Counted from the whole stretch's first letter, positions 1,620 to 49,516 are shown. The stretch is 53,356 nucleotides of DNA, filler included, from Jimgerdemannia flammicorona (GCA_003990765.1; 3 parts of 3 records of this genome joined end to end with filler, not necessarily neighbours in it), one strand, 5' to 3'. Numbers and translations are program-made. The notes: generated by a model not told the origin, from the sequence alone.

Positions 1620-3187
1620 TGTCACATAGTGGTCACTGAGTCCTTCAAATATACCAGATTCTCTTCAAGATGTATCTCTTAGACTAACTCAAGTTTGTTA
1701 TAAGCAAGTTCTTATTGGAGTACCTTTCCAAGATCTTATAGTTCTCAAACTTCTTATCTTTAAACTGTCTTGTTATCTCTTAGATTGCTTGCAAGGAAGT
1801 GTGTGTATTGTACTGAGAGGAACTGACTTTATTTCAGAGGAAATAAGAGGGGTATTTATACAAAATATAATTTAATGGTTGCTAAGATATAAAGCTAAAT
1901 ATAAATTTCAATAACTAAAACTACTAAGTTCCAGGGTTGGCACTGATGGTTGTACAGGTTCAGAATATTGATATTATTTAGTATTATATCAAAATACCAG
2001 TACTAGAACAATTCTGTGTCACCTCAGAATATCAGTGCTGGTATTATCCAGTGTTACATAAGAATACCAATGCTGGCATTATCCAGTATAACAAAGAACT
2101 TAGAGCAGAAAGTTCAAGATCATGGGGGCTTCATTATCATCATCACTGAAGGAGATGAGATCTGTGAATTCATCATGTAGGTCACATGTTTCATATACTT
2201 TGCATGCTTCATTACGCATCTCGCATATGTCGAAGTCATGTAGGATGATGTCATCGCTGATGACATCATCATGTTCAGTGGCAGGAAAATCGGAAACAAG
2301 ATCTGAAGCTCTCCAGTCTATGAAGGTCTCTTCCACAAAATAGGGGACAAATGTGGGGTCTTGGGGAGATCTAACCTAGATGCTTGGGCCTTAGAATACT
2401 GAGATCAATCCTTGCAGAAATTGGTCTGGATTGTCCTGAAGGATAGAATGCCAGAAGTCTTCTATTTCTTCGCTGTTGAGAGTGATAGTAGACTGGACTT
2501 CTGTAGCCACTCTGGCTTCTAGTATATTGATACGGCGGGATGACAGATCTCTGAAGTCTGAGACTCTAACATACTCCAAGTTGGGGATCAACTATGGTGT
2601 ATACCTGAAGATCTAATAGATCTTCTTAGCTGTCCTTGCTTTGCATATATCCATGAGAGTGGCATCTTATAGCTCTTGGGTGCTGGCCTGTGGGAACTCC
2701 CAGCAGAGAAGGTTTCCTATTTCATACTCCTGTCACATTTGGAGGTATTCGGTAGTAATGGTGATCCTTGTTTCCATTTCATGGTAGTAGAGAATAAAGT
2801 GATAAGGGTCTGCAGTACCCAGGTTGATACTAGGAGTCCTTCTTGAGTAGGTCCCCATGACTCTTCTGATGTCTTAGAACATCTTTTCCTCGACTGGGAT
2901 ATCTTGATGATTCCTTGACCTTGAGGTTTGGCAGGCAGCAGGTATTTCATTTGTGGTAAATCTTTGAGCTATTTTGGGATTGGTGGTTCTTATTGATTAC
3001 TGCTACTGCAGTTCCTTGATTCTTCTTTTATATTCTTTGGGATGCTTATACTGTGGTCACAATGACTCACAGTTAGTCATCATTGCTCATCTTATATGCT
3101 GTAAGATCTTCTTATACTCTAATCTGGTAGCTTGCAAGGAAAGGCTGTCTCCTGTGCTGATGTCATCATTCTGAGGTCACCGTTACA
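1620..3187 (-). mobile_element. Long solo LTR (1568 bp) carrying an internal ORF
   Basis: Termini TGTCAC...GTTACA; 4-bp TSD ATAA (1616-1619, 3188-3191); the interrupted transposase reading continues across it; minus-strand TATAAATACCCC promoter motif at about 1849-1860, as in the paired LTRs of this window. Confidence 0.85.
2100..2945 (-). pseudogene. LTR-borne accessory ORF (about 281 codons, single frame, several premature stops), unknown function
   Basis: (M>I)PAACQTSRSRNHQD...EYLQM*QEYEIGNLL...AKKIY*IFRYTP*LIPNLEYVRVSDFRDLS...FWHSILQDNPDQFL...DEFTDLISFSDDDNEAPMILNFLL. Track ORFs 2391-2591 and 2100-2336 are in this frame; homologous copies at 20349-21193 and 43386-44209. Confidence 0.8.
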
Positions 3188-3901
3188 ATAAATATATATA
3201 ATTAAGGATTAATAGAAAAAAAATAGAATATATAGTAAAAAAATATCATTCTTATCATTGAATTTCTAAATAATAATAAATATATAATAAATAAATTAAT
3301 TAATATCTGCCTTAATTGTCTATGTATGTATGTCTATCTTTTAATTATCTGTCTGTATGATATGTATATAGTTTCATTAGTATTATAAAATTTATATAGT
3401 ATTATAAAATTTATATGATGATTTCCTTTTTAAGATGTATGTGACTGGCGCCATAATCTGACTCAACATAATATAAATTATTTTTTTTAAAATTATATAG
3501 AAATATGAAAAAAAAATTAAATGAAAATTCTGGCTCTATTACATTGTAGTAAATCAATCAAAGAATCATTTTATAGAATTAGATTTTTAATACATATATT
3601 TTTTGTTATGTTCTATTCCTTCAAAGTTTGTCAAAAAATTTTGAGGTTTATAGATGCGCCGCACTGTATTAAGGCTGCGGAAAGATGTTCAATTTTAGCC
3701 CTGATTGGAGGCCCGCGGAAATGTGTGGGCCACAAGGCCGATCACTATGTCGTAGGTGACGTAATCCGCAATTTCTGTTGCGTGTCAAGGTATCGGGCAC
3801 TCCACACTGGCCAGCACTGGGGTTGTGGCCAGGCGCTTAATAATACGACGGACTGAATTAGTATCGCCTCTTTTTTTTTTTTTTTTTTCGTGCTTTATTT
3901 T

Positions 3902-4284: not shown

Positions 4285-4811
4285 CTATTCCAAATCGTGG
4301 AATTGAAGTTGAAAGCGAATCAACCGCATGTCGGGGTCCTTCGAATGCCAATACACCGAGGGATTCACCTTTGTAATGATGTGGCCTACACTGAGCCGGC
4401 CCCTATTCACCTCTATCACAAGCTCCAACTTGAATCTTTCGAACTCCGCCTCGGTCTCGTCAAAGCGCTCTTCGACGAAGTCCCAGAATTCTGCCCAGTT
4501 CAGGCGGTCACAGGCGCTGCGCTCCACGGATTTGAGATTTTTCAACATCTCCTTTCGATTCTTACTGGACCCTTTACCGTGGCCGCTACCAGCCTCTCCG
4601 GCTCTGAGTTCGCGAACCGTAAATCAAGAACCACGAAGCTGCCCCAACGTTTTCGATTCTTCACCAGGACGTGATCGTAGATCATCTGGATGAAGCGCAC
4701 TATGAACACACCGTACACTTCCATCATAGGCCTAAGGCGAGATACCTCATCTTCAGGAGGTGCGTAGGACCGACGTTTTGAGGCATGGCGGCGAGAGAAT
4801 ATGTTTCCCAT
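4285..4811 (-). pseudogene. Frameshifted paralog of the orphan N-myristoylation-motif gene at 8771-9304
   Basis: MGNIFSRRHASKRR...; a 7-nt deletion near 4567 relative to the intact copy splits it into track ORFs 4542-4838 and 4285-4548; duplicated TATATAAACC box upstream (about 4851-4890). Confidence 0.85.
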
Positions 4812-6753
4812 GTCAGAGTGTAAAATTAATGGATTCAAGTTGTTTCAGAAGGTTTATATATATATTCAGAAGGTTTATATATATATATATAAAGTTTATT
4901 TGACATTCTAGACTGATGTATGTGTGATGCGATTTATGAGGTCATGGAAAGTATATTTTTCGGAGGAGAACGGGGCGGGTATGTAGCGTAATAATGTGAC
5001 TGCTGCCGAACGAATCATTCCACTTGCCAGGAGAAATGTTACTGCAGCATTCATGACTCGTCCTCTCGACTTATCCGGCCAGGTACATGTTCCAGGGCGT
5101 CGTGAGAGACGGAGGGGAGGTGACGCAGTCCGCTTGACTCTACACGCTGACACAGCGGGAGAGACACTGCAACTCACCCCGTGGGACAATGGCTGCTGGT
5201 TGACACTTGACCCGTGATTTCTCCTTGTGTGGAAAAATAAATAAAAGGCGTCAAAATAAGCGGTTCTGACTTGACCGATGCGAGTGGCGGGTGCCGCACC
5301 CGCCGCGTAAGGGGAGGGGGGCCAGTGTCAAATAAAAGGTTTCGACGGAAGCTCGGGAAAGTACGAACGATGAACACAAAGCACGAAGGACCACCTGAAA
5401 CCTCCCGTTACGTCAGATTTAATGCGCATATCCGCGTCATTGAAGGCAGAAGATATTTCTCGTCATGTGATGGCTCCGTTAATCGAAATGGTTGTTTTCT
5501 ATGACATGAATATATATTTAGACTCACTGTCAGGTTACACCCTACCTAGCTGTAAGCATGTAGCTCAGAGGCATTCATTTTGGAATTTCTTTCGATTTTA
5601 AGTTGATTTCATTCATCTCTGGTGGCAGGCGTATACTTTTGATGTCGCTAGTGGATCCTTTTGGGAAGGCATCGTGGATGACGTTTTTGTAAAAAGTTTC
5701 ATTAAACCATTTAGCATGTTGTCCTTTGAACCTTTCTCATCCTCGGGGTCATTGATCCGCGCGATATGAATGCGGAGTAGTACATTCAAAGATTCATATA
5801 GTTATTCTTTATTTTTTGTGGTGGTTACACACGAAGTGGAGACAGTGAGATGGTGACGTCTCCATGGTGATACCACGATAGTGACGCCCAGGCTCGATAA
5901 TGACGTCACATTCTCAATGGTGACGTTTCAATGGTGACATGAAACGTGCCCCCCCCTTGGGAGAATTGTTTAGAAGGTGATGGTGCAAAAGCATTCTTCA
6001 CCGTCAAAGTCGATTTTTAGGTGTAGCTGCAACTTTACGTAGTATGTATATACGCGTGAATGAAGTCAAAATTCAAAATGAGACGGACGACAAAAAAAAA
6101 AAAAAAAAAAAAAAAGAGCAGAACCCAGATGTCGGCGACTTACATATTCATTCGGTACAATTGACACATTTCCATGAAGAGCGATTGGATTAGTGAGATT
6201 GGCGTGCCATCAACGCTGCCGAGATAACTCGACTTGAAAATCCACGTTGGACACAACTGCGCGCTGTTAGCGATAATGCACTTTGGTGATGGACCCCAAC
6301 GACATTTTGCTCGTTCAACAACTCTAAGCGTACATCAATCCATTTGTTTTTTGAGAAATTCCCGGCTGGCATGCGATCTGGGAGTAAAAAAAGGAAAGCT
6401 CTAATCACAAACCTTTACAACATGTATCTTCCAAAATCACATATAATAGTGGGAAACAGCACTTGAGGGATCAATATGAACACGCCAGGAATTTTATGGG
6501 GAAACCCAGATTTCATTTCTATCAGAGATGCGATGGGTTCGATCCATTCTGACCTTCGGTCTGGTAATCCGTCGTGGTGAACCTCATTTCGAAAATCTAT
6601 GCCGATATCATCGACTGTGCACCACCTTATCGAAACTTACCATTGATCCTTGCAAGACCTAATCACAAACCATCGCTTTATTTTGTTCTTTTATTCATTA
6701 TGCATAGATCATCGTTTTATATTTATTTATTCTAAGACCATGAGGCTCGTTTT

Positions 6754-8293
6754 CTAGTTAGGACAAACGTTCAATCTACTGGTCAGCTCATCCTGCACGG
6801 CACATACCACGCCGTATCTCTTCTGGCGCTCGCACTCGTCGCGGCTATGTCTATCGCTGTCACATCTGAACTCGTCACGATGCTTCTTGAAGGCGATCAG
6901 GACTCCTCGTCTAGGATGTCGCGGAGGCCACCTGTACGTAAAGAGAAGAATTTAGCAGAAATATATTGAACGTAATAAGGATCGCTACGCAGATTCGTAG
7001 ACGGGGCATACGTACCAGAAGTTAAATCAATAACACCAAACTTTACGTACTCGATAGTTTTGGTGAGGTGCCTTCTAAGTGGCCTGCGGTGACGGAACTT
7101 GCCATTACGATCGCGGTCGTCGTCGCGATCCTTCCTATCATCATCGCGACGCTCATCGTCTCGACGCTCGTCTCCGCGTCCAAGCCCCAGAGTGAGCAGA
7201 ACTATCTGCTGTCTACCGTGTTTCCCATCCTCGTCGCGCCACCTCTCCAGCTTCTTGTTCATTTTACGTTCTCGAACCGGATCTCGCGCTCGCCGATCGC
7301 GTCGCCGAGAATACGTATCAGTGGCGTCGGAGCCTGTGAGGCAGTACACGCGGCGGTGGTGGTGCTCGTCCAAGGGGACCCAACGGAAGCCCTGCGAGGT
7401 GCCCTGGCCCTAGGAAACTGCGACTGGGGTCTGGGCTTCGCCTTGAGCACGGCGGTCGTCACAGCCGTTGTCACCGCCGCGGTGGCGGCGAATCAGATGA
7501 TGTAGGTGGCGCGGCAAACGTCGAGGATGTTGACGGGGGGGACGCGACCGTCGCGGCCGGTACTCATCTTGAGGACGTGCTCGTTTTCAATCGCGAGGGC
7601 CCAAAGGAGGAAGTACTGGAATTTGCGCAGCGAGGGAATGGTTAGATGTGTTTGACGTTGACATGTGCGTGAACAGCCTAATGTGAAATGAGAATATATT
7701 ACCTAAAGATATACCACCTCCCCCTGGTAAAGCTGTCCTCGAGGCACCTCTCAAGTTCCCGGAATTCACAGAGATTTCTGAGTTCCCCGTCATTGGCCGC
7801 GGGGCCGATCCTAAAAAGCGAACCGAGGGAACATTAGTGACTAAATCACCATCTCAGTCCGACAGAATATCCTGTTTTTAAGAGCTCACGTGGAAATAAT
7901 GAGGAAACGGCGAACGTTCTCGTGCTCCATAGCATCGATGGCCATGGCGGACCCTGTTGCGAGTCATGTCCAGGACGAAGATGACGTACTCGCAGTTGCG
8001 GAAGGCACGGCGGAGGGACTTGCGGTTTTCGTAGTCATTTTCCTATCCAAGAACATCTACATTAGCATCTAGTAATCATTTATTCGGTCCTCATCAATAA
8101 TCATAAAAAATAATATATATATGCCAATAACACTTACAATGATCTCGGTGCTCAAGTCCTTCAAATTGTCGTGACAGAACAGGACGCAGATGTGGTGTAC
8201 TCGTTGTGATGGTCATGGCCATTGCGCTCGGACTCGCGGAGCAGGTAGGTGGGCGGTGCTGACGCTGGCACTGGGGCTGGCGGAGCGGTTCCA
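6754..8293 (-). pseudogene. NmrA-like / atypical SDR NAD(P)-binding protein pseudogene with Asp/Arg-rich insert
   Basis: Segments EII|ENDYENRKSLRRAFRNCEYVIFV..AIDAMEHENVRRFLIIS, FQYFLLWALAIENEHVLKMSTGRDGRVPPVNILDVCRA, HHHRRVYCLTGS, ILGDAIGEREIRFENV and DLTSG|GLRDILDEE..FKKHRDEFR follow NmrA-family motif order. GT-AG introns at 8043-8137 and 6932-7015 with branch sites; multiple frameshifts. Confidence 0.72.
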
Positions 8294-8684
8294 TTTTTTT
8301 TTTTTTTATGTTGCAGGGGAAAAGGTACCAGCTTTTTACACGACCAAGCCACCTAGACAAAGTCACGTGGTCTTACATCGAGACATAGATTGCGATATCA
8401 CTTATCAAAAAAGAAAAAGAGGGAGCTTTGTAAAACTTTAACTTTAATGTAGAATGTGTGATTGGAAGCTGAACTAGATATCCTAATTCACGTGAAGTGG
8501 CTACCAGTTAAAAATAGTAATATTTCCACGTGAGTCGCTTTGCTAAAGATCTTTAACTTTAAAGTGGAATATGTGATTGGAGGATGAACTAGCCGAACTA
8601 CCCATTTTATTTTCTTTTAACGCCGGCCTATTACAATGAACTCTCTCCGTGGTGATCATGGTTTTACAGCCAAAAAAAACTCGA

Positions 8685-8695
8685 TTATATAAACC
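8685..8695 (+). promoter_or_regulatory. TATA box (TATATAAACC) upstream of the 8771 gene
   Basis: Lies about 80 bp upstream of ATG 8771; the same TATATAAACC motif precedes the inverted paralog. Confidence 0.55.
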
Positions 8696-8770
8696 CTCAA
8701 TTTCCAAAAAAAAAAAAAAAAATTGAGCTCGACTATTTATACGCATTCCTCTCCTTTCAGCCAATCCAAC

Positions 8771-9304
8771 ATGGGGAACATATTTTCTCGTCGTAGTGCC
8801 TCAAAACGTCCGTCCCGCGCACCTCCTGAAGAAAAGGTATCTCGCCTTAGTCCTATGATGGAGGTGTACGGAGTGTTCATAGTGCGCTTCATCCAAATGA
8901 TCCACGACCAAGTCCTGGTGAAGAACAGAAAATGTTGGGGCAGCTTCGTGGTTGATTTGCGGTTCCCGAACTCGGAGCCGGAGAGGCTGGTGGCAGTCAC
9001 AGCAAAAGGTCCCACGGACAGTAAGAATCGAAAGGAGATGTTGGCAAAGCTCAAATCCGTGGAACGCAGGGCCTGTGGCCGTCTGAACTGGGCAACCTTT
9101 TGGGACTTCGTCGAAGAGCGCTTTGACCAAACGGAGGAAGAGTTGGAAAGATTCAAGCTAGAACTCATGACAAAGGTGAATAGGGGACAGCTCAGTATCG
9201 AACACATTGTTACAAAGGCGAATCCCTCGGTGTACTGGCCTTCGAAGGACCCCGACATGCGCTTGATTCGCTTTCAGCTCCATTTTCAACCAATTCATCC
9301 ATGA
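8771..9304 (+). CDS. Intact intronless 177-aa hypothetical protein with N-myristoylation motif and polybasic N-terminus
   Basis: MGNIFSRRSASKRPSR fits MGxxxS; conserved along its full length with the paralog at 4285-4811; CpG retained; TATA box upstream. Confidence 0.8.
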   Translation: MGNIFSRRSASKRPSRAPPEEKVSRLSPMMEVYGVFIVRFIQMIHDQVLVKNRKCWGSFVVDLRFPNSEPERLVAVTAKGPTDSKNRKEMLAKLKSVERRACGRLNWATFWDFVEERFDQTEEELERFKLELMTKVNRGQLSIEHIVTKANPSVYWPSKDPDMRLIRFQLHFQPIHP

Positions 9305-10973: not shown

Positions 10974-10975
<2 letters not shown>

Positions 10976-11984: not shown

Positions 11985-13090
11985 CCTCCATCAATGAGAA
12001 TTCAGCAGCAACGAACCTCCATCAATGAGAATTTAGCAGCGACTAACCTCCATTGACTATACACAGAAGTTGCACATAATGGAGTGGGCCGTCGATTACT
12101 CTAATGGAGGCGGGTGATTGCTGCGGGCGGTCAATTGCTCTTAGAGAGGCAGGCGGTCGATTGCTCTAATCAAGGCATGTGGCCAATTGCTCTAATGGAG
12201 GTGGGCGGTCAAATGCTCTAATAGAGGCGGGCAGTTGATTGCTCTAATGGAGCAGGTGGTCGATTGTTCTAATGGAGCGGATGGTCGATTGCTCTAATGG
12301 AGCAGGCTGATTGCTCTGTCTCTCATCGATCGAGCCATCAACATTTTCATGTAATGGGGCTCTGACACAGCCGCCTACATCCTCAAGCACAAGTACATGG
12401 AAGCCGGGGTCTCCTTCAATAATCTAAATGAAAAGCTCATGCCCGAAGATGAATTAGAAGGAGGTGAGCCTGATGATGAGGAAATCAAAGTGACGGGAAA
12501 TGAGTCGATTGCTCTAATAGAGTGGGCGGTTGATTGTTTTAATGGAGCAGTGGTTGATTACTCTAATGGAGGTGGGTGGGCTGCAGGCAGTCAATTGCTC
12601 TAAGGGAGGCAGGTAGTCGATTGCTCTAATGGAGGTGGGCAGTCGATTGCTCTAATGGAGGTGGGAGGTCCATTGTTCTAATGGAGGTGGGCGGTCGATT
12701 GCTCTAATGGAGTAGGCAGTCAATTGCTCTAATAGAGTGGACCTATCTCATCGATTGAGCTGTTGACATTTTCACATACTGGGGCCCAGCCCCCTATGGA
12801 AGCCGGGGTCTCCTGGACAGGCTTAATGAGGAGCTCATGCCCGAAGATGCATTGGAGGAGGCAAGCCTGATAGTGAGGAAATCGAGGTGACAGGAAACGA
12901 GCCGATTGCTCTAATGGAGTGGGTGGTTGATTGCTTCGGGCAGTTGCTGTGAGCAGTCGTTTGCTCAAAGAGAGGCGGGTGGTCGATTGCTTTAAAAGAG
13001 GTGGGTGGTCGGTTGCTCTAATAGAGGCAGGTGGTCGATTTCTCTAATAGAGGGGGCAATCGATTACCCATGCTAATGGAAATGGAGTGG
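11985..13090 (+). repeat. Minisatellite array (about 24-26-bp unit GTCGATTGCTCTAATGGAGGCGGGCG) with an approximately 400-bp higher-order repeat
   Basis: Many degenerate copies; spacer block ATGGAAGCCGGGGTCTCC...GCTCATGCCCGAAGATG repeated at about 12397 and 12796. Confidence 0.85.
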
Positions 13091-13356: not shown

Positions 13357-13785
13357 CTCTGCCGAAATCCCCTATGCCGAAGTCTCCTCTGCTGAAGTCC
13401 CCTCTCTTGCTGAAGTCCCCTCTGCTAAAGTCCTAGTCGCCACGAAGGAAATCGAGTACCCTTCGGCAGAGAGGACTTCAGCAGAGGGACTTTGGTAGGG
13501 GATTTCGGCAAAGGGAACTTCAGCAGAGAGAACTTTGGCAGAGGGAACTTTGGCAGAGGGGACTTCGGCAGATGAAACTTCGGCAGAGGGAACTTCGACA
13601 GTGGGGATTTCAGCACAGGGGACTTCAGCAGAGGGAACTTCGGCAGTGAGGACTTCGGCAGAGGGACTTTGGTAGAGGAGACTTCAGCAGAGGAAAGGTG
13701 ACTTCGGCAGAGGGGACTTCGGCAGAGGGGACTTTGGCAAAGGAGACTTCAGTAGAGGGGACTTTGGCAGAGGAGACTTTGATAG
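13357..13785. repeat. Foldback-arranged 15-bp minisatellite (GGGGACTTCGGCAGA and its reverse complement)
   Basis: TCTGCTGAAGTCCCC-type copies at 13357-13433 face more than 15 GGGACTTCGGCAGA-type copies at 13462-13785. Confidence 0.85.
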
Positions 13786-14544
13786 AGTATGATATTTTTA
13801 TTTTATTTTATAACATATAAATTATATTTTATAAGAAATTTCTCAGTTTGTGTAAAGCATTTGTACTTCTAGTATGATATGGTAATTGGTCAAGATGATA
13901 CATTCGGGCTTCATGTATAGAACTTATTTTCAATTTTTTATAGATTTTAGATTCTTTCCTTTGCCAGATATATATATATACATTTCTGGATTTTCAAAGT
14001 TTGCGAATGAGTGCTCGTTCACTTGATACATTAGCGATATTATTGATCAGAGGTATTTCGATTATTCATGAGCTCTATTTTAATGTTCATAATGTTGGAC
14101 AAGTTAGAATATTGACTGATAATTTATCAGAAGCATCTAGGGGTTATGACAAGAATGTTGACGCCATCTAGGCTCAGAGGGCTCTTTCCGAAGAAAGATG
14201 TTGAGATGTTTGTTGGGCAGATGTGGTTCCCATTCCTTTTTTTTTTTTTTCCATATTTATCTTATTCTTGGGCTTACTTTGTAAGCATCTCTTTTTGAGA
14301 CTCACCCCCAAATTCCTATGAATTAAACCACCATCTTTTTTTACTAAATAAATTACAATTGATCATGCATGGGTCTCAACATTTTTCTCATTTCCATCTC
14401 GCTCCCCTCCCCTGCCTGCTCCCACTCCCGCTCCCTCGCCCTTCCTGCTTCCTCGCCCTTCTGCCTTACGGTCCCAACAGCTACTTTGAATAGATCAGAA
14501 AGCATAAAAGTCAGAATGATGGAAAACTAGTCATCAGTTCCGGT

Positions 14545-15000
14545 GCCGGCGGCGTTGGTATCATTGGCGCCGTTAGTGCCGTTGGCAGCATTGGTAGGTG
14601 GCATTGGTACCGTTGGACCGTTGGCGGCATTGGCGGCGTTGGTACCGTTGGCGGCATTGGTACCATTGGCGGCGTTGGTACCATTGGCGCCGTTGGCGAC
14701 GTTATTACCGTTGGAGCCGTTGGAGCCGTTGGAGCCGTTGGTACCGTTGGAGCCGTTGGTACCGTTGGCGCCATTGATACCGTTGGCGCCATTGGTACCA
14801 TTGGCGCCGTGGTACCGTTGGTGCCGTTGGTACCATTGGCGCCGTTGGTACCATTGGCGCCATTGGTACCGTTGGCGCCATCGGTACTGTTGACACCATT
14901 GGCAGCACTGGCGCTGCTGGCGCTGCTGACAATGCTGGTGATGTTGGCGGCGATGGCGGCGCTGGAAGTGCTGGAGGCGCTGGAGGCGCTGGTGGTGTTG
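14545..15000 (-). repeat. 9-bp tandem repeat (CCAACGGTA/CCAATGGCG), Pro-x-x coding on the minus strand
   Basis: Long run of CCGTTGGCG/CCGTTGGTA/CCATTGGCG units giving [10 protein letters not shown]. Confidence 0.9.
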
Positions 15001-31470: not shown

Positions 31471-31475
31471 TTCCT

Positions 31476-33190: not shown

Positions 33191-33203
33191 AAAAACCCTC
33201 TCA

Positions 33204-38689: not shown

Positions 38690-39085
38690 ATATGGTACAA
38701 GGCTATCATCCCTATTAAGGCTCACCCAACCAATGCTGGATATGACCTCTACAGTAGCCAAGACCTCACCATTCTACCAAGCACCAATGCTACAGTGTGA
38801 ACAGAGATTACAATACAAGCTCCCAAAGGTATATACATCCACCTTGCTGAGTGAAGCAGCCTAGCTAAAGAGTTCAACATTGGGTTAGGAGGAAGAATAA
38901 TTGACCAAGAATTTACTGGTGAAATCTGTATCATCTTGCAGAATTTTGGAGATACATCATTTGAAGTCAAAGCAGACCAAAGAATTGTCCAAGCAATCAT
39001 TAAAGAAATCTGTCAAGATCTCACTATTGAAGAAGTCCCTGAGCTCTCCCAAACAGACCATGGTAAGAAAGAGTTTGGATCAACC
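38690..39085 (+). pseudogene. Retroelement-encoded trimeric dUTPase domain
   Basis: AGYDL, E*SSLA (RSS motif), GRIIDQEFTGEI, DQRIVQAI, HGKKEFGST correspond to the five dUTPase motifs, between the Gag knuckle and the protease. Confidence 0.9.
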
Positions 39086-42000
39086 AATAAACCTCTCAGT
39101 CAAAAGGTCACCACTATGAAGGAAGATGATGAAAACTAGTATAAGAGAATTGTGAATGGTTATACACCATGTAGATGATGCTCTCATTCTATTTGAATGT
39201 ACTACATAGAACATATTAGTGAATGCCATGCATGTCTCTTCAAGGGTTTCAAAATCAATTCTAAAAGAAACCAAGTCCAACAGACTGAGAAACCCAAACA
39301 AGACAACCCTCCTTGTGAAGGATGGAGAGAAACTGACTTTGAGAAGACTGACAGCAATTGGAACAACAATGAAGATGAAGAGCTCAATACCATCAAGAAG
39401 GAGGACAGTTGCATCAAGTTCACAAGTCAAGTCCACAGATAGAATATCAATGTCTTGCTTGATAGCAGTACTACTAGAAACTATATCAGCACTAAGACTG
39501 CCAAGAGGATTGGAGCCCAAAGCAGACTATACCACTGACCAAGATCTGTGAGTATCTCTTACTCAAGATTGACAAATATCAAGAGAAGTTGGACTTCAGT
39601 ATTGTAGATCTTCCAGGACAAGACATTATCCTAGGAAAAGTCTGGCTGACCCAATACAACCCAGATATCAACTAGAGGACCAACAAGGTTAATCTGATCC
39701 ATGAAGGGAGAAAGATCACCCTGATACCCTAAGAAGGTACCAATCATCAAGGAATTGAAATCATCTCTGCCATCCAAATGAAGAGACTCTCTCAAAAAAA
39801 GGAAAACACCCACTTCATCTACACTATACAAGAAGTCAACAAAGCTACAAGTAGCCCAATCCCAACAGAAGCTCAAGAACTGTTTGAAGAATTCCAAGAT
39901 ATATTCCAAGATCCTCAAGGACTTCCACCCAAGCACCAAATCTAACATGGAATTGATCTCATTCTAAGATCTGAACCCCTATATAAGAGTATCTATCAAC
40001 TAGCCCAACCTGAACTCAAGACCCTCAAGGATGAGTTGATCAAACTACTGGTCCAAGAATATATTGAACCCAGCCACTCTCTATTTGGAGCTCCCATTCT
40101 ATTTGTCAAGAAGAAGGATGGCTCTCTGCAAATATATATTGACTATAGAGCTCTCAACAAAATCACTATCAAGAACTAGTATACCTTATCTAGGATTGAT
40201 GAGTTATTGCACCAAATCTTCAAGGCCAAGACCTTCTCCCTACTAGACTTGTGAAATGGCTACCACCAGATTCTTATTAATGAGAAGGATATTGAAAAGA
40301 CAGCTTTCTGAATACAGTTTAGACACTACCAGTTTCAAGTCATGCCTTTTAGTTTGACTAATATGCCAGCAACATTCCAGTATCTGATAAATGACATCTT
40401 TGGACCACTCCTCAACATCTGTATCCTTGTATATATTGATGATATACTAATCTACAGTGAAACAGTAGAGTTGCACTACACCTATCTCAGATAGGTACTG
40501 ACTCTTCTGCAAGAACACCAGCTCTATGCCAAGATGAGCAAGTATAAGTTCTATCAAGACCAGATTGAGTACCTAAGACATATCATCTCTGCTGAAGGTA
40601 TCAATGTGGACTCTCAAAAGGTATCAGCTCTCAAGAATATTCCTATCCCTACTATCCTCAAGCTACTTCAGTACTTTCTGAGTATTGCTGGTTACTACCA
40701 AAGATTTATCCAAGAATACTCTGCTATTGCAGCCCCACTAACCAGCCTGGCCTGCAAAGGAGTAAACATCAAGACTGAATGGACTTCCAAATATATCCAG
40801 GCTATAGACCATCTCAAAAGACTCCATACTGAGGCCCCAGTACTAATTGCACCTGACCCTACCAGGCCATTCACTCAGACCACAGATACCTCTGACATTG
40901 CTATTGGGGCAGTATTCAGCCAAAAAGACCACCCAGTAGCCTATCTTTCCCAAATGCTTAAGCCAGCTAAGATCTAGTATACTATCTATAATAAGGAACT
41001 CCTGGCCATTATTACTATACTCCAAGAATGGTACCATTTCCTTCTGAGATAACTATTTATAGCCTATACTGATTACTATGATCTGTGGTATATTCACACA
41101 CAGCCTATACTGACCCACAGACAAGCCCACTGGATGGAAATCATTACCAACTTTAATATAGAAATCAAGTATATCTCAGACAAAACCAACTATGTGGCTG
41201 ATGGTTTCTCTAGATACATAGAAGATGAACTTGTCTTCATGGTTGAGATAATTAGAGACCTTATCCAGATGATCAAGGATAGCTACTAGCAAGACAGCCC
41301 CCTGATGAAATTCCTTCAATTCTGCCAAGTCCCAGAGGCCAAGGTCCCAGAACTCATAAGGCAAATGTCCAAGAGATTCACTTACTGTGATGGACTTATC
41401 TACAGAGACCATGACAGAGTGGTTGTGCCCAACAATGATATTCTGTGGCTCAAGATTATACAGGAACTTTATAATACTCCTACAGTAGGACATTTTGGTT
41501 TCAAGAAGACCTATAACCTCCTCTCAAGAGAGTTCTACAGACCAAAGATGACCAAGGTTATTAAAGACTTTATAGCCTCATATAAGATGTATCAAAGGTT
41601 CAAAAGTAGTAATAAGCTACCAGCAGGACTTCTGCAACTGCTACTAATCCCAAGTCACAACTGAGATCAGATTGCAATGGACTTCATTGTCCAACTCCCC
41701 AAGACCAAGGCAAGATAGGATACCATTGTGGTATTCATAGACCACCTAAGTAAACAAGCCTATTTTGCATCCACCAAGACCACTGCTACTATACCAGAGA
41801 TTGCTGAGATTTTTCTCAATTAAGTATTCAGACTATATGGCATGCCTAGCACCATTATATCTGACTGAGATGCCAAGTTCACAAGTAACTTCTGAAAGGC
41901 ATTCTTCTCTCTCCATGGAACCAATCTGAAGTTCTCTACTACCTACCACCCTCAGACTGATGGTCAAACTGAGTGAACCAATAGGACTCTCAAGCAGATG

Positions 42001-43385
42001 CTTAGCATCTTCTGCTGTTACAAGCAGAATGATTGGGACAAGTACCTAGCCTATATATAACAACAGCCAGCAAACCACTATGAAGAAGACTTCATTCTTC
42101 CTAAACCATGGTCAATACCCAAGGACCCTGAGTACTACTGTGAAATCAGTAGTTCCAGTAGGTTGAGACCATTTCTGATCTTACCTAAATGACAAGAGAT
42201 GCTCTCATAGAAGCACAGGACTACTAGACCAAGTATGTGAACTTGAAGTGAAGAGAAGTCTCCTACAATATTGGTGATATGGTTATACTTAGAACAGATC
42301 ACCTCCACCCAGATACCCTAGCATAACAACTAGCTAAGAAACTCTCTACTAGAAGAATTGGACCATACAAGATTGTGGAAAAAGTCAGTGAAGCTAACTA
42401 TAAGTTGCAACTTCCTTACAATATCTAGTATACCCAGTATTTCATATCAGTCAATTGGTGGACTACTATGAGAATCTATTTCCCAAGCATATAGTTCCAC
42501 CACTACTCTCAATTAGAATCAATGATCCAGAGGAATTCAAAATTGAGGAAGTACTTGACCATAAGGTCTGCAAATATTTCAAAATAGTCAAGTGCTTTTT
42601 CCTCATTAAGTGGAAGGGTTACCATACCCATAATACTATCTGAGAAAAGGAAGAAACTCTGGAGAATACACATGAAGCCCTCTAGAACTATATGGAAACA
42701 CTTACTCTCTAGCAAAGGAAGGAACTATATATAGCTCTAAAGAATTAGAGCATATAGCAAATAAGGAGGATACTATATATTTTATCCAAAACATATAATA
42801 CTAAATATTGCAGAAAAAAGAAACATTATAGTTAACCAACAAGAAGAGGCTCAGGCAAAGGATAATCTTGCATAGTATAGCAAAACACATTTGAATAACT
42901 CCATTTCATACCATCTGTGTCATCTCTGCTAGATGATGATGAATGCTTTATATGGAACTTAGAAAAGCTGATGATGTTGAAACCAATCTAAGCCCATCTA
43001 TATAACAGATATTGTTACTAGGAATTGCCTTGGATTATAAGAAATTCTATTTCTGAGAGGTTTGAACCCCCAGCTATAATAATGGGAGCTCTTGCCCTAG
43101 ACAAGAATGGCCAGTCCTCACAAATGTACCAACTAGATAAAAAAAAAAGAGGACCAAGATCTGTTAACTCTGTGTAACTACAACTATAAGTGATGATATC
43201 TTTGAAATCAGGAGTTTCTCATATGACCAGCACATGCCCCACTTATAGCAACAGGTCACACATTTTGCTAGAAAGTATGACCAAAAAAAGGTCATACCAG
43301 ATAGGTGAATAAGTATAAATACCCAAGGCAAAAATACCCTGCAACTCTAATCCCCCTCTTCTTATAAAGAAAAGACAAGACAAGA

Positions 43386-44209
43386 ATGCCTACTACCTGC
43401 TGCCAAACTGTCTACCATAGCCAGTCCCTCTCAAGCCATATAGACCACCTTTTTGGACACATCCAGGTTGCTATCTAAGGAAGGAACTGCTGCTCTGAGG
43501 CCATTAATCTCTCTAGCCCAGACCTGACAATATGTCCTTGACTGCTGTGAACTTATCAAAAGAGCCTATCTTACCACCAGCCACCTAGAGATCTGGCATA
43601 AATACAAAATCAGCCACCAGCTTCTATAATATACAACTGGCCTACCCACTGACCAGGTCTCAGACTAGACTCACCTGGACAGACATAAACAGAGACTTAC
43701 CAAGAAGGTCTATTAAATAATGTGCCATGTACTCTTTACAATCCCCAACCTCAACTATATCCAACTGAAGGATTTCTAGAATCTCTCTTTCCCCAAGATT
43801 GATAAGCTAGAGATCAAGGTTGTCTAAGAAGCCCACTCCTGGATTATTTTCAAGTCTACTGACTGCAAACGCCACTAGAGTGCCCTCATGAATGACAATC
43901 CAGACGAATGGCTAAGGCCTCTCTGACCTCTTTGAAGGACCACCTATCTGAATAGATATTCCCAGACATAAGGATCAAGAACCCTACTTGGATGGTCTCA
44001 ACTGCATCAGATAGAGAACCCCTACACCAGTACTCATTCCAATACAAGAACTATTTGCAGACCTCATTGACTTCTCCATCCTGAACAGTGAGTCATCAGC
44101 AACCACCTCTCTTGCTACTGAAGAGGATGGCAATAATACTGAGGAAGACTCTCTACCTTTCTCTCTCCTAGTTCTCAATTTCCAAATCAATGAGGATGTT
44201 GATTTCTAA
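43386..44209 (+). pseudogene. Accessory ORF between chromodomain and PPT, homologous to the solo-LTR ORF at 2100-2945
   Basis: MPTTCCQT..HLEIWHKYKISHQL..KKVY*IM..IPNLNYIQLKDF*NLS..IDKLEIKVV..LMNDNPDEWL..ELFADLIDFS..LVLNF; TATAAATACCC at about 43313; stop abuts the PPT. Confidence 0.8.
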
Positions 44210-44982
44210 GGAGAGAAGGATGTAATAGAACAAATAAATAGACAAGATGTGATGAATGATCACATGACCCAGCAATGACATCATTATATAATTGAGTGCA
44301 ACATATGAATGATGAATGAATGAATGATGTGAAAAACAATATCCTGTTTATCTCTAACAATTGGCACTGTAGCAACTATTACCACAGCAACTGATTATTG
44401 CCTAGTAATTGAGGTCCTTATCACAAAGTTGTTTTTATCAAAAATTATCTGACAAAGGTCATAATCACAAACCTCATTATAGTTACCAAATTAGTGACTC
44501 ATACTTAGTCAGAAATCACAGACCAACTTGTATAAATACCCCCAGTTTCTATCTGAAATTAAGTAGTTTTAGTTTAGTCCTTAATATAAGTATCAAGTTC
44601 CCCCCATACACACATATTCTCCTAAGTCTTAGTAATGACATCTAAGTAACTCTGGTGTTTCTGACTAAACTCTAAAAGCCTAGCAAACTTCTGCCAGAAC
44701 TGAGACTGGTATATAAATCCCCAAAGACTTAAATAAATCCATTGAATCTGAATTCTAAGATAAATTCAGTCTGTGCACAGCAAAAAACAAGACTCTTGAA
44801 AGATAGGGCAAAAGAGAAAGACCTTTGAAAGATAAGGTACTACCACTACAACTACTTTTAAGTGAGTACTTCCTCAAACTGAAGGCTTCTTGGTATATAT
44901 TATATACTAAGTCTCTAAGTAATAGTCTTACTTCCCTAATTAGCCAAAGGATAAGTGAGGGGTAGAAGTGAGAGTTATTACA

Positions 44983-45724
44983 CCTTCTACTAGACAGTGA
45001 TGTTGCCCACCCTGGGGACTCCAACCAATCTATCAACCAGTCAGCAAATCTCCCATCAATCTCTCCCATCTCAATAGCTTCTCCTGTATACCTATCTGTT
45101 ATCCCTCCTTGAAAACAAAGAGCCAGTATCTAGCCAGCCCTACCCATACTACTAAAACCCACTCACAGTAAGCCAACCATTATCCACACTACCTACTAAC
45201 TGAGATCTCAAATCCTCCCAGCAATCTCTCTCTCAATATGGCCTCCTCTCTACCCCCAGCCAGTTCCCTACTACTATCCAAAAGTTCCCCAGAACCTCAC
45301 ACTCTCCCAGCCAATGTTCTGGTATCTGCACAAATCCCCCAACTTGTCCTATATTATAACACTCTCACAATCTAATTGGCCACTATCCACCAGATGTCCA
45401 GCATGAAAATTCAACATGACATTCCTCTGCAGCATCCACCACCATACCACTCAGAACTTAGAAGGAAGTCACCTCCACACCTCAGCACTCCATAACCAGA
45501 CTCCTGCCCAGTCCCACTCCTTACCAATCCCCACTACCTACCAACTACTTGGCCAAAGATCCTGGCCAAGACCTCACTAACACTCCATACTATCACCAAT
45601 ATCAAACTCAGTAAGTAGAATATCCCCCAGAAGCAGTCTGTCCCATTACCACATAGCTGAGCCCCATAGCATCTCCCACTCATTGCTTTGCCATTATAGG
45701 CTGATTCAGTATAGGCATCTTTTA
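44983..45724 (-). mobile_element. Fragment of LINE ORF2 C-terminus (related G-rich family)
   Basis: Minus strand encodes NIGQVGGFVQIPEHWLGECEVLG, as in the other copies; bounded by the Gypsy 3' LTR and a new LINE 5' end. Confidence 0.8.
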
Positions 45725-47454
45725 CCAGTAACATTCGGGTGACACAAGACTCTGACAACACTTTTTACAACGTTTTTGGTGCCTGATGACTAACAACATG
45801 GACAGCAACAATTGAACTAGTGAGCGTACTGGCCAGGGGGGTGATGGTGCCTTTGGCTGGCAGCAGGTGGGGAGGAGGGGAGATGGCTTGGGGATGCCAG
45901 GGGCCTCGATGGCTAGCCGAGGCCCTGGTGGCGGAGGGAGGGGCGGTCTGAGGCAGAGAGAAGGGGAGAGGTCAACCTTTGCTGATAAGGTCAGAATGGG
46001 GAAGATGGCTTCTAGGCTAGATGGTTGGCTGGGCCTGGGGAAGGCATCGATGGCTACAGCTGGGGGGCAGGGAGGTGTACCCTGGAGTACTTCTGGTGGT
46101 AGGGAAGGGGCCAGTGTAGGGGCTGGAGATGTGACTGTTGATGGGGCTGTGACTGGGGATCTGGCAAAAAATCCAGATGTGATGGTGGTTGGCAATTCCG
46201 GACTTGGAGTGGGCACGAGGCCTGGAGACCTGGCTGATGGGGTGATAGGCATGGTGTTGGCCCCATTACTCAAGAAGTTGAGGTCAGAATTCATGGTCAC
46301 CATGTGCTTCCGGGGCTTGGCTGTAATGGCGAGGATGATTTTGGGGCTGGTGGTACAGGAGGCTAAGGGAGCAGCGTCATTGAAGTTCTTGAAGGGAAAG
46401 GAAGGAGTTGAGGTGGGGTTTGAGGAGGAAGATGCCTTGTTGGCAGTCATAGAGAAGAGGGTGAGGGTTGGCGGCATTGTGGTCCCTATGGCCTGGTGCA
46501 TACACTGGGACCCCCGAGTGGTGCAGTGGACAGTGCTGGACCTCCCGACTGTGTCAAAGGAAAGGACCAGGGAGTTGGTTGTGGAGGTGGTCAAGGAGTA
46601 TGGTGAGATTGTGGATGTTGGGTTCAAGATCTGGGAGGGCACAGAGCTTAGGACTGGCAATATTGATGTCAGGGTGAGGCTGGCTGGAAAGGAGAGTATG
46701 GGGAAGTCGAGGGACTGGCTAGCAGCACTGAGGTGGGGACTGGTGGAGTGTAAGGTCACCAGGGTGAAGGGGACTCTGGAGGAGGAGGAGGACCTGTTGG
46801 AGGCTCTGGAGGACCTAGAAGGGGCAGTGGCAAGGAGGAGATTGGCCTGGAAGGAGTTTGAGGCCAGGATGGTAGTGGGGGAGGTGGATGGGAAGAGGAT
46901 CAGGATGGAGAAGGGGGCCTGGGAAAAGATGCAGGGGAGGAGGATCCAGAAGGAGCTGTTGGCGAAGTTGGGCAGGGGTGGGGCTGGTGGAAGCTCAGGG
47001 GAGGGAGTTACAGGGTCGCGGGAGAGCACCTGGGCTGAGGGGGGAGAGATGGCCCAGGGTGGTGATCAGATTGGAGGTGGGGAGGGGAGGGAGGGCAATT
47101 TGGAGGTGGATGCCAAAATGGGCGAGGGTGTGCACCCTCAGTATAGCATTCCGGGTGGGGCAGAGGGAGAGGAGGAGCTGATGGATGTGCCGGATGAGGA
47201 GTGGGATGAGTCAGTGAGAAGGAGTATGCTGGTGGACCCTGAGGTGGATGGAGGACAAATCGCTCAGGGGGCGGCGGAGGTAGTGGATGAGGAGAAGTGG
47301 ATGTGGAAGACCTTGGAAGAGGTAGCAGCTGAGGAGCTGGGGGGAGAGGACTTCAGGGTGTTGGAGGAGAAGCATTGGGAGGAGATCCTATGGGGAGAGG
47401 AGGTGCCGAGAAAGATGAGGAATGAGATCCTGGCAGTCTCCTGGAGTCAGTTAA

Positions 47455-49516
47455 TGTAAGAGGGTTGCTTTTTAGGGTAACCGTTACGTAGTTCTGGAAG
47501 GGTTTTCTGGAGGTTCTGGATATTCTGGAAGACTGTTTTCTTATGGCCAAGATCAATTTCATATGGAGTACATCCTCTATGCTTATTGATTTCAAGATTG
47601 AGTTGACATCTCAACCAAAGTCCTTTTTCAGACTAGTTCTGGATGTTCAGGATTTTCTGTATTTCAGGAAGTTCAAGAAACTAAGACCAGCTTAGTTGAA
47701 TTGGTGTATTGCTGCAGACAATACCCAATTAGGAAATTTCGTGATGGGGTTAGGAGTAGGACCTAACAAGGAGCGGATTTACTTAAGAGTGGTTTGTAGG
47801 TTATGGAATAGGTTTATTTGCTATTCATGATATTGCTACACTAGGAGTGGTTGTGTGAAGGGATATTGTGGGGAAGTATTCAGGAATGTTCTTGTGTATT
47901 CGAGTCTGAGATTCTGAGGTCTGGGGGAGGGGGTATTTATACTAGTGAGGGGCTATCTGGACTATGCTGAATATAAATATAGCACTAAGTGCCTTGCTGA
48001 GTTGGAATGCAGTCACATAGTACAAGTGTGATCTTACATATCAAGAGATTGTCTGACTATTGAGTCAGTTTACAGTCACATCGTACAATGCTAATCTAAC
48101 TATACTATGACTGCTAGACTATTTATGGGTTTAGGCGCTGTCTGGGTAGTCTTCAATGATATCACCATCGATTGTATCATCTCTGATGAAGTAGTCATCT
48201 AGGAAGAGTGGTTCACGGATTACTTCTCCTTGTTCACTGAGGTAATAGTACATTGGAACTTCATCTCTGTCCCACAAGATAGCATCGTTGGTCTCATAGG
48301 CTGGATAAGGTGTTGGTGGGCAAAGGATGGGTGTATTGTCTTCACTTTCGTCAGATTCACTGTCTGCATACCTTCTATAGGTTACAGCACTATGAGTTGC
48401 AGAATTATAGTAAGGTGGCAGCTATGGTTCATGTTGCTCATACTCAGGTGGTGGAGTGGTTGGTTCAATCTTGAGGGTTGTCTGGAGGTACAGGTTGTGT
48501 TCTCTGGTCTCCTCATTGTAGTTGAAGTAGTTGGGAGTGAACATGGGTTGGTATTCATACCAGTGGTCATTGTCCCAATAAGTCTCGTATGCAGTTATGA
48601 ACTGTTGCAAGTTCATTGGCAAGTTTGGCGGTATGATCAGGGTTGGCCGAGATCCTTGCCTAGAGGTCATGTCAGCATCAGAGGGATCATTGTCTTCTGC
48701 TTCATCTTTGTCGAAGTGGATTATATCATAGATGTCCTTCATGGTATATCCGACTTGAGGCATTTGCAGGATATGGTCATCAGGGTGTGGGAAGGTTCTG
48801 TCTGTGGTCTGGATGTATTCGAGATACTTGTGGTTGAGTTCTTGTATCATGTCGTTGATTTGGCCATAGGACAGGGTAGCAACCATTTCACTGGTAGTGA
48901 CTTGGAGGCAGGGAATAAAGGTGTTGTACTTATAGAAGAGTTCTCGATGTTTGTGGGTGATGAGCTTCTGGTGTTGAGACATCTGGGTAATGTCTATATC
49001 GTGGTGGTGTTCGACCATATCTTCCAAGAGGTGGCCAATCTGGTAGTAGCTTGAGATTTGTCTGATTCGGTGGACCTCACTAAGCATGTTCAGGGCATTC
49101 CATTGGACTTCCACAAAGTAGAGGGGTGCCAGGCTATGGATATTCATGAGGGGCAGAGGGGGTGTGGCTTGGTTGACAATGGCATTCCAAATGTCACCGC
49201 GGATATGGTTGTAGATCTCAGTGGTCATGTTTGTGTGTTTGGAAGTTATGGTTGTTATTTGTTTTGGTTTTCTGATTTGATGCATCTCAGTGCTCAGTAT
49301 ATATACATTTAGTCCTGATTGGTACGATTCTGTTTGTGTAAATCTTGTGTTCCGTGACTTCATATTGACTCAGCTTTGTGCACTGTGACTTCGGTTTGAC
49401 TCAGCTTTGTGATCAAGCAGGTGATTTCCAGATTTGTTCAGAGGTCGTGTGTAATTTCGGTGGCTTGTTCAGAGGGTGACATGTAATTTCAGTAGCTTGG
49501 AGGTTGTGCACTTACA
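47455..49516 (-). mobile_element. Long solo LTR (2062 bp) carrying an internal ORF
   Basis: Perfect TGTAAG...CTTACA termini; 5-bp TSD GTTAA (47450-47454) / GTTGA (49517-49521); LINE ORF1 resumes across it; minus-strand TATAAATACCCC at about 47930-47941. Confidence 0.88.
48131..49228 (-). pseudogene. LTR-borne accessory ORF, 365 codons with a single in-frame TAG (48422-48424)
   Basis: MTTEIYNHIR..PPLP..RQISSYYQIGHLLE..RELF..FIPCL..PPPEYEQHEP*LPPYY..DSESDESED..IIEDYPDSA; TATATATA at about 49298-49305 upstream. Confidence 0.82.

Follow-up and report, generated by a model that had tools for sequence, protein, structure and literature searches.

Accessory regulators are a hallmark of complex retroviruses. 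Foamy viruses have an internal promoter and a transactivator gene, tas/bel1, and mouse mammary tumor virus (MMTV) encodes the open reading frame (ORF) sag in U3, the unique 3′ region of its long terminal repeat (LTR); the Sag product is a type II membrane glycoprotein. Among plant Ty3-type elements, extra ORFs of the Tat/Ogre type occur. In fungal LTR retrotransposons accessory regulators are, to our knowledge, hardly known, and solo LTRs are usually regarded as dead promoters. For LTR retrotransposons of bdelloid rotifers, an additional ORF3 is reported (PMC5408684). Here we analyze five accessory ORFs, at loci A to E, in a 53,356-base stretch of DNA from Jimgerdemannia flammicorona (GCA_003990765.1), hereafter the window. 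The explanation that we favor, and to which we give slightly better than even chances, is a lineage-restricted accessory gene that is carried on the sense strand downstream of pol in a clade of Ty3/chromovirus-like elements. In the openly available literature, including passages of PMC3248453, we found no description of this gene family or of ORFs encoded in U3 of fungal LTR retrotransposons (subscription journals lay outside the scope).

The window is a nest of decayed long interspersed nuclear elements (LINEs) and Ty3-like LTR elements, in which Pfam, tRNA and Rfam scans found no host gene, tRNA gene or Rfam RNA. A sequence-only reading of this DNA had proposed a single unnamed protein family at the five loci, placed either inside LTRs or behind pol. 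All five ORFs are present at the positions it gave and translate as it claimed (Table 1), and the strands, which it did not give, are minus for A, B and D and plus for C and E. The motifs that it quoted were also recovered: MPAACQT in B, IPAACQT in A, and IPNLEYVRVSDFRDLS, DNPDQFL, YEIGNLL, YQIGHLL, YAIGEQL and YKISHQL. Its core proposal, that related LTR retrotransposons carry a conserved and unnamed accessory gene behind pol, was borne out by the homology of A, B and C and by intact relatives in public databases.

Judged by their protein similarity, A, B and C form one family (family 1) beyond doubt. The proteins of A and B are 74% identical, A matching B at E 1e-111, and locus A matched the hidden Markov model (HMM) of family 1 at E 1.4e-128. 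In tblastn searches within the window, A found C at E 4e-16 (32% identity over 161 aa) and C found A at 5e-17; both A and B matched C, at E 4e-16 to 4e-13. The metagenome contig L001 carries an intact ORF of 291 codons, whose product, P0013, matched C at 6.6e-47 (at 43531-43923 and 43916-44275), A at 2.2e-41 and B at 1.3e-39. The resemblance of A and B to C, which had been noticed by manual alignment, is thus far beyond chance. Locus C starts at 43386 as had been read, and runs to about 44275, past the end at 44209 that had been assigned to it.

Searches of protein sets comprising 5.8 billion proteins gave the family-1 relatives P0007-P0011 (five matches among 149 candidates) and, from a search with four matches among 2901 candidates, P0014 and P0015. 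All of these are open ORFs, full-length or partial, and all lie on short metagenome contigs. Two further cluster members, P0016 and P0017, bring the relatives in public protein sets to about nine, intact or partial, and the only label that any source attaches to them is 'hypothetical protein'. The intact ORFs are 43-95% identical to each other and lie on separate short contigs. A metagenome scan gave one locus out of 257 pattern matches, and two scans each of viral contigs and of prokaryote genome contigs gave no relatives. In the ESM Atlas, the best look-alike clusters of P0013 scored 0.92, 0.90 and 0.89 and were all unnamed; the last is composed mostly of Mucoromycota, which we take as a lead only. 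For P0001, the ESM Atlas gave nothing above 0.83.

Could these ORFs be no genes at all, but conserved non-coding DNA of LTRs or 3′ untranslated regions that is open by chance in some copies? Every copy in the window but D is full of stops, and DNA similarity yields weaker matches in other frames too. Against this, the in-frame match between L001 and C has an E-value of 6.6e-47 and the other frames have values of 1e-6 to 1e-26, a difference of at least 20 orders of magnitude. Moreover, blastn of L001 against the window DNA gave no match while the protein matches reach 1e-39 to 7e-47, and at least eight separate ORFs are intact at 43-79% identity. We find the non-coding explanation barely credible; by the evidence of these frame-specific matches, family 1 is a real protein-coding gene.

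The position of the gene relative to the LTR is clearest for locus D. The LINE segment 33203-35543 is collinear with 45724-47451 plus 49517-50128, and therefore about 2 kb were inserted in the second copy. The insert is flanked by a 5-bp target-site duplication (TSD), GTTAA/GTTGA, of which the uninterrupted LINE has a single site. The 20 public sequencing runs listed for the window each contain less than a third of the words sampled from it; most are soil metagenomes, and none is listed as RNA. Contigs of four public runs, which show neither strand nor true transcript ends, were aligned to the D region. Contig depth is about tenfold higher inside 47462-49486, with steps at both ends of the insert, and four contigs from three runs represent the empty site, in which the LINE flanks are connected with 2078-2099 nt left out. 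Left of 47455-47457, loose contig ends have the sequence ..CTGCTGCTACCAAGT; its reverse complement, ACTTGGTAGCAGCAG, follows the 5′ LTR of the retrotransposon holding locus C (element C). After that 5′ LTR lies the primer-binding site (PBS) TGGTAGCAGCAGG, which we presume to be that of initiator tRNA-Met. Right of 49516, four X3 contigs read ACTCTCCCCTTCTT, the reverse complement of the polypurine tract (PPT) AAGAAGGGGAGAGT. The D unit thus has the TG..CA ends and TSD of an LTR and is abutted, in other copies, by a PBS and a PPT. Because these flanks fix the orientation, ORF D stands in sense in a minus-oriented solo LTR. It begins 288 nt into the LTR and ends 190 nt before the LTR promoter box (TATA2) AGTATAAATACCCCC, and so lies in U3. 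The claim that D is inside an LTR therefore held, on the strength of the TSD, the empty-site contigs and the PBS and PPT flanks. Two other placements were considered and rejected: an antisense ORF, by the PBS and PPT flanks, and an ORF within R-U5, by the module of TATA2 and AATAAA downstream of the ORF.

A sense ORF within U3, as in MMTV, was found for D only, between the LTR 5′ end at 49516 and TATA2 at 47941. As with sag, a full sense ORF within U3 is copied in every LTR, and the LTR is therefore unusually long (2.06 kb for D). Unlike Sag, the present proteins have no hydrophobic segment that could give a type II topology and no similarity to Sag or to any other Pfam family at E <= 5, and ORF D starts 288 nt inside the LTR with a TATA box of its own.

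Loci C and E occupy an internal position. Element C carries the sole reverse transcriptase (RT) of an LTR element within the window, and shows the order RT, RNase H, integrase and the C-terminal chromodomain that define a Ty3/gypsy chromovirus. It has LTRs of 531 bp that share 90% identity, and zinc knuckle, dUTPase, RNase H, integrase and chromodomain were recognized between them. Locus C begins 640 nt past the end of the chromodomain and ends about 180 nt before the 3′ LTR, which starts at ~44456, so that its reported place between the two is correct. Locus E directly follows an integrase, as had also been read: its ATG overlaps the pol stop codon (ATGA) behind an integrase C-terminal end of the KLEPKWEGPY..VHINRLKLY type. 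No chromodomain follows the integrase end of this element, which is 5′-truncated at an N run, and Pfam found no other pol domain at 15001-18134 upstream of E. E is thus placed internally, behind pol, and a putative 3′ LTR begins about 40 nt after it. Plant and animal Ty3-type elements with extra ORFs offer a parallel, namely an ORF without assigned function between pol and the 3′ LTR that is common to several element families. They differ in that theirs is another sequence family, whereas the present gene has no described domain, lies on either side of the U3 boundary and is found in a host that looks like a soil eukaryote, possibly a Mucoromycota fungus (a lead only).

Two further observations concern element C. 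Its dUTPase (38855-39136, plus strand; Pfam E 3.2e-12) lies between the gag zinc knuckle (38444-38683) and the RT/RNase H; dUTPase is an accessory pol domain confined to some Ty3-type lineages. At 43135-43175 (plus strand), about 225 nt before the ATG of C, a purine run, AAAAAAAAAAGAGGACCAAGA, is followed by TGTTAAC. This is the same relative position at which the units holding A, B and D start with TGTAA, and the homologous stretch of L001 is without the purine run. The run may be a relic of, or a latent, PPT and LTR start.

The two remaining members of family 1, A and B, lie in a pair of similar units of 1.38-1.41 kb that are 78.7% identical. Their boundaries coincide exactly at both ends, and beyond these the flanking sequences diverge at once. 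Their termini, TGTA(A)..TTACA, resemble those of the D LTR, TGTAAG..CTTACA. We consider it probable that the units are LTRs, as the sequence-only reading had stated without reserve; their shared TG..CA boundaries speak for it. Several results weigh against it. In the window, the units have no paired LTRs, TSD, PBS, PPT or adjoining pol remnant. Only ~50 nt follow the LTR-type TATA box, which would make an implausibly short R-U5. Finally, the LTR-type TATA follows the ORF stop at a distance of 242 nt (A) and 261 nt (B), and in C, where the box is that of the 3′ LTR, the distance is 256 nt; this equality fits an internal gene with a truncated LTR equally well. The same facts would be expected if the units were 3′ fragments of C-like elements, made up of the internal gene and the first ~125 nt of the 3′ LTR, in which case the U3 position would be confined to D. 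Such fragments, however, ought to retain upstream pol, which was found at neither unit, and would hardly be expected to have two identical boundaries in two copies with flanks that differ at once outside, or ends like those of the proven D LTR. We regard fragments as rather unlikely, and treat the A and B units below as probable LTRs. In a separate observation, the B unit (TGTAAG..) and the putative 3′ LTR of E (..CGTTACA) abut tail to tail, 3 nt apart, at 20033-20037, which suggests repeated integration at one spot or end-directed targeting.

Locus D, with 365 codons and a single internal stop, belongs to the second group of sequences, family 2. A HMMER scan with D against 1.84 billion representatives gave four matches at E <= 0.001, two of which are real. 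These are fragments: P0003 is 84% identical to the N-terminal part of D and P0002 is 66-67% identical to the C-terminal part. P0002 reads on past the position of D's stop, and thus the frame continues. The other two, P0004 and P0005, were dropped as relatives, being internally repetitive proteins that were matched in six short stretches. The earlier claim that D matches E over about 65 residues was only partly upheld. In Smith-Waterman comparison the pair scored 58 against 33.7 +/- 5.2 for shuffled sequences, with 1/1000 shuffles as high, and each was the other's best non-self match in the window; by BLAST the match is weak (E 0.029 and 0.15). The homology of D and E is suggested, not proven, by these scores.

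Whether families 1 and 2 are themselves related bears directly on the proposal of one gene. We consider distant homology over the N-terminal ~100 residues probable on the profile evidence, not proven. The shared stretch has the pattern ..Y-x-I-G-x-x-L .. D-x-T .. K-x-H-x-x-F .. I-P-x-L .. L-S.., and both families have the same position, polarity and build. In hhalign, the first alignments gave a probability of 2% (P 0.025), with 1/200 column shuffles as high. Richer alignments, to which intact C-type proteins and E had been added, gave E 4.1e-4 and a probability of 34.8% over 105 collinear columns. In a separate run the score was 31.5 against 13.0 +/- 2.8 for column shuffles, none of 170 being as high (z ~6.7), and the reversed control scored 9.6. 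The score climbed from 23 to 31-35 as members were added. When HMMs were run on six-frame tiles of the window, that of family 1 placed D first after A, B and C (E 0.065), and that of family 2 placed E first after D (E 0.35).

These results leave room for a rival, in which A/B/C and D/E are two unrelated accessory families, independently acquired at one 3′ slot, and their likeness in the Y-x-I-G-x-x-L and I-P-x-L strings and in the acidic tails is convergence or chance among helical proteins of similar composition. Much of the evidence weighs against a single family and can be read in that way. Across the groups, BLAST gave no match at E below 1. Seven of the eight cross-group pairwise scores were at chance: all four family-1 proteins compared with D, and P0013, P0015 and P0007 compared with E; the eighth, P0008 with E, scored 51 and was equalled by 8/1000 shuffles. 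The hhalign probability, even at its highest, is just 35%, column shuffling removes helical periodicity and may overstate significance, and the link between D and E itself rests on ~70 residues at 24-25% identity. In addition, P0015 has R where the motif has G, and P0013 and P0001 have no ESM Atlas look-alike in common. Independent families, on the other hand, would not be expected to align collinearly across 102-105 columns, to gain in score with added members, to outscore all 170 column shuffles as well as the reversed control, or to have each other's loci as first non-self match of either HMM. Nor would they readily account for the slot, strand, TATA spacing and LTR module that are common to both groups. 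Two families are possible in our view, but doubtful. As to the proposal that all five loci are one family, it is certain for A, B and C and borderline across the groups: the profile-profile similarity, whose absence would have told against it, is neither null nor clearly significant. A match to an already described transposable element (TE) domain would likewise have told against a novel family, and none was found in Pfam (E <= 5) or among PDB chains (E <= 10).

A single accessory gene is further suggested by its surroundings. A TATA[AT]A box stands shortly upstream of the ATG at all five loci that do not overlap pol, at -87 in A, -88 in B, -72 in C, -77 in D and -80 in L001. Across the window, this motif has a density of 0.0028 per nt per strand, so that ~0.09 would be expected in a span of 31 nt, and the chance of such placement over three independent lineages is roughly 6e-4. 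Part of the leader that precedes the ATG is conserved from A/B to L001, though the proteins are only ~40% identical. A second element, (T)TGTATAAATACCCC with AATAAA ~27 nt later, is found in the A and B units, in both LTRs of element C, in the D LTR (where AATAAA is further off) and in the putative E LTR. Since all four LTR families have this module in common, the four elements are, by this mark, relatives. The layout is TATA1, gene, TATA2/AATAAA, and the U3 boundary falls before TATA1 in D and probably in A and B, and after the gene in C and probably in E. The gene-specific TATA 72-88 nt upstream of the ATG and the promoter module common to all four LTR families are new here.

Two points weigh against a dedicated promoter. 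Because E has no canonical upstream TATA, only TATTTAAG at -80 inside the integrase frame, a promoter of its own is not universal to the gene. Furthermore, no transcript start was observed, the material being contigs and two RNA-like runs whose type was guessed. In these two runs, depth rises from ~100 to ~5000 just past TATA2 of D, below ~47885; this fits a transcription start there, with the reservation that the run type is a guess and that contigs cannot show starts. Apart from the boxes themselves, each TATA box of the D LTR is preceded by tandem repeats, at 49345-49499 (with units of 31 nt and 18 nt) and at 47998-48100 (minus strand). These repeats contain TGAGTCA and TGACTCA, and similar strings, TGAGTCA and TGACATCA, occur upstream of TATA1 in A and B. 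TGAGTCA/TGACTCA is the consensus of AP-1/Gcn4-type basic leucine zipper (bZIP) sites.

Herein, we outline how such a gene could work in its elements. Where it does not overlap pol, the gene would be a transcription unit of its own, with a TATA box 72-88 nt before the ATG and an end at the polyadenylation signal of the LTR. Whether it is internal or part of the LTR would depend only on the side of the gene on which the PPT lies. With the tract downstream of it, as in C and E, the gene would be internal. With the tract upstream, as in D and probably A and B, the gene would come to lie in U3, be copied to both LTRs and be kept in solo LTRs. A shift of the PPT would suffice to turn one layout into the other. 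The sequence-only reading had the gene move between the two positions at least twice, which the window, with a single LTR-element RT for an element phylogeny, does not establish. Since E overlaps pol, it would have to be expressed in another way, by splicing or by coupling to the translation of pol. On the model of the foamy virus internal promoter and Tas, the two TATA boxes could form a two-promoter circuit, in which the acidic-hydrophobic tail of the product would recruit host machinery to the promoters of the element. In its full form, this proposal is a clade of chromovirus-like retrotransposons, probably fungal, whose members encode a transcriptional activator or anti-silencing factor of their own, driven by a dedicated promoter and placed within U3 in some lineages, with solo LTRs that act in trans on the whole element family; we consider the full form unlikely.

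The likeness to foamy viruses lies in a 3′ accessory gene after the structural genes, here with a TATA element of its own besides the LTR promoter, and in a small non-membrane product with an acidic tail. The logic we propose would also be the same, with the regulator coming first, from the second promoter. In contrast to the foamy virus, the present proteins have no match in Pfam at E <= 5, the carriers are env-less retrotransposons, and the gene is inside U3 in D and probably in A and B. No sequence match to Bel1/Tas was found in Pfam or in PDB.

The product of family 1 has 250-340 aa. It is built of a basic, Arg/Ser-rich N-terminus, with basic residues over the first 30-60 positions, a middle that is predicted to be helical (~20-185) and an acidic tail. 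The conserved blocks include W-x-E-Y-E-I-G, A-K-K-I-H-Q, I-P-N-L-x-Y-V-x-V-x-D-x-x-x-L-S, L-Q-D-N-P-D-Q-F/W-L and I-D/R-W-R, followed in the tail by F-x-D-L-I-x-F and the terminus ..VLNFL. Family 2 has comparable acidic, aromatic strings at its C-terminus. The computed isoelectric points are 4.05-4.94. None of six proteins examined has a transmembrane (TM) segment (maximal Kyte-Doolittle mean over 19 residues, 0.59-0.97), which agrees with the earlier statement that the protein is not env-like. By hydropathy, neither the signal peptide nor the TM anchor of an env-like protein is present; no dedicated signal-peptide predictor was applied. An identity as env or gag was ruled out by the lack of both a TM segment and a zinc knuckle. 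What is shared with retroviral and errantiviral env is the slot, downstream of pol and upstream of or reaching into the 3′ LTR. The proteins differ from env in being acidic, helical and disordered, with no signal-peptide-like or TM segment and no match to an env family. Pfam at E <= 5 gave no family for six proteins (four of family 1, two of family 2) or for the ORFs of the window, P0001 having two chance-level matches only (GrpE and Ku_PK_bind, E 0.2), and a search of PDB chains with the family profile A5 at E <= 10 gave 0 matches.

From this composition, a tentative and rather doubtful assignment is that of a nuclear regulator which increases the element's own transcription; an adaptor that diverts a host defense or degradation pathway, or an RNA-handling factor, would be less likely still. 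Some points weigh against any such functional reading. It rests on composition and short motifs only, among them F-x-D-L-I-x-F with its putative resemblance to acidic activation motifs. Two AlphaFold models, from alignments of 8 and 11 sequences, had a mean predicted local distance difference test (pLDDT) score of 35.0 and 40.6; they are unusable and support no fold, and their secondary structure, helical at 18-186 with a disordered tail, is of low confidence.

An ORF of this kind could also derive from a host gene by transduction of a fragment, or be a passenger without a role in the life cycle of the element. No function is shown and no known TE domain matches, and capture of additional ORFs by LTR retrotransposons is reported (PMC5408684). 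On the other side, the gene is intact across lineages that are just 43% identical. At least three or four element families have retained it, together with a conserved TATA box in front and a leader that is conserved in part. The database relatives, on contigs of 778-4848 nt, include no cellular protein of greater length, a weak argument as the protein searches spanned only 0.55-1.75 times the query length. A captured or passenger ORF is, on balance, quite improbable.

The decay of the copies carries some information of its own. All seven internal stops of A fall at Q, W or R codons of intact relatives. Between A and B, 11.1% of second codon positions differ, compared with 21.5% of first positions, 22.2% of third positions and 21.4% of positions outside the ORF. 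This low divergence at second positions is a trace of past constraint, though base composition could contribute to it. Transitions account for 205 of the 266 differences between A and B, and the contigs aligned at D differ from the window almost only by transitions. Their excess is compatible with deamination of methylated cytosines or with a process like repeat-induced point mutation (RIP). As side observations, the stops of A go back to codons of the CAA, CAG, TGG and CGA types, and in run X1 the differences were A>G at 81, G>A at 74, C>T at 40 and T>C at 46 places, against 2-4 for each transversion.

The conserved unnamed gene is a testable candidate for a regulator or counter-defense factor encoded by a retrotransposon and, as it is found both inside and outside U3, it offers a natural experiment on how the PPT relocates. 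Solo LTRs could be protein-coding units, which bears on annotation, as such ORFs are labelled 'hypothetical protein' in metagenomes. If the proposed circuit is true, a retrovirus-style regulatory circuit would exist outside retroviruses, and each solo LTR would be a free-standing copy of a regulator gene. If the function is trivial, there would still be a new TE protein family that deserves a Pfam or Dfam profile.

Table 1. Positions of the loci, their elements and other features in the 53,356-base window.
Feature	Position	Strand	Basis or remark
Locus A, decayed family-1 ORF	2100-2945	-	7 internal stops plus terminal stop; start codon mutated to ATA
A unit, TGTA..TTACA, holds locus A	1809-3187	-	1.38 kb; probable LTR, orientation presumed from ORF sense
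TATA1 of A	3032-3025	-	motif
TATA2 module of A unit, TTGTATAAATACCCC	~1860	-	AATAAA ~1833
Locus B, decayed family-1 ORF	20349-21193	-	stops; frameshift near C-terminus
B unit, TG..CA, holds locus B	20037-21450	-	second copy of A unit
TATA1 of B	21281-21274	-	motif
TATA2 module of B unit	~20090	-	AATAAA ~20063
Element C, Ty3/chromovirus-type LTR retrotransposon	36218-44986	+	LTR pair, PBS, Pfam domains
RT_RNaseH_2, element C	40495-40974	+	Pfam
Integrase_H2C2, element C	41290-41661	+	Pfam
Chromo, element C	42404-42640	+	Pfam E 1.9e-4, under Pfam cut-off because copy is broken
Putative dedicated promoter TATAAATA, 72 nt before ATG of C	43314-43321	+	motif
Locus C, decayed family-1 ORF	43386-44275	+	stops and frameshift; in chromodomain Ty3 element
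D LTR, solo, TGTAAG..CTTACA	47455-49516	-	2,062 bp inside LINE; TSD GTTAA/GTTGA
TATA1 of D, TATATATA, 77 nt before ATG	49298-49305	-	motif
Locus D, family-2 accessory ORF	48131-49228	-	365 codons; one internal stop, TAG 48424-48422
LTR promoter module (TATA2) AGTATAAATACCCCC, downstream of ORF D	47934-47941	-	motif; AATAAA 47818-47813
Integrase C-terminal end, E element	17823-18134	+	translation; weak MLVIN_C match, E 0.0032, under Pfam cut-off
Locus E, family-2-like ORF	18135-18628	+	1 stop, 1 frameshift near 18420
Putative 3′ LTR of E element	18670-20033	+	GGGGGC then TGATGTGAC at start, ..CGTTACA at end; no second copy in window
Module TTGTATAAATTACCCC, putative E LTR	18943	+	AATAAA 18969
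LINE copies with endonuclease and RT remnants	~23564-29042	-	self-comparison and Pfam
LINE copy	31470-35543	+	self-comparison and Pfam
LINE copy, in two pieces	45724-47451 plus 49517-53300	+	self-comparison and Pfam
N runs, four, 44 N each	17723-17766, 17779-17822, 35544-35587, 35600-35643	n/a	self-comparison

The remaining features of the window are listed with the loci in Table 1. The LINE copies (23564-29042, 31470-35543 and 45724-53300) have a very strong strand bias, with a GC skew of magnitude ~0.3 to 0.5, and their G+C content is ~0.5 compared with ~0.33 in the AT-rich spacers. Long ORFs of 506, 547 and 360 aa are kept in these copies, so that the LINEs may be of more recent date than the LTR remnants around A and B. 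The N runs form a pattern of 44 N, 12 bases and 44 N that occurs twice identically, each time at the break point of a retroelement, namely the truncated 5′ side of the E-element integrase and the end of a LINE alignment.

Toward the left end of the window, an inverted repeat pair of 520 bp and 84.7% identity (4298-4813 and 8769-9288) brackets ~4 kb with ORFs of 140-200 aa on both strands, which have no Pfam match. The region 4298-9288 may represent either a DIRS-like element or a DNA transposon that has long terminal inverted repeats. Tandem and dispersed repeat blocks at 12077-13065, 13461-13787, 14494-15103 and 16618-16786 are open in several frames on both strands and give weak collagen-like and extensin-like Pfam matches, of the Gly-X-Y type of composition; they are probably satellite-like DNA and not genes.

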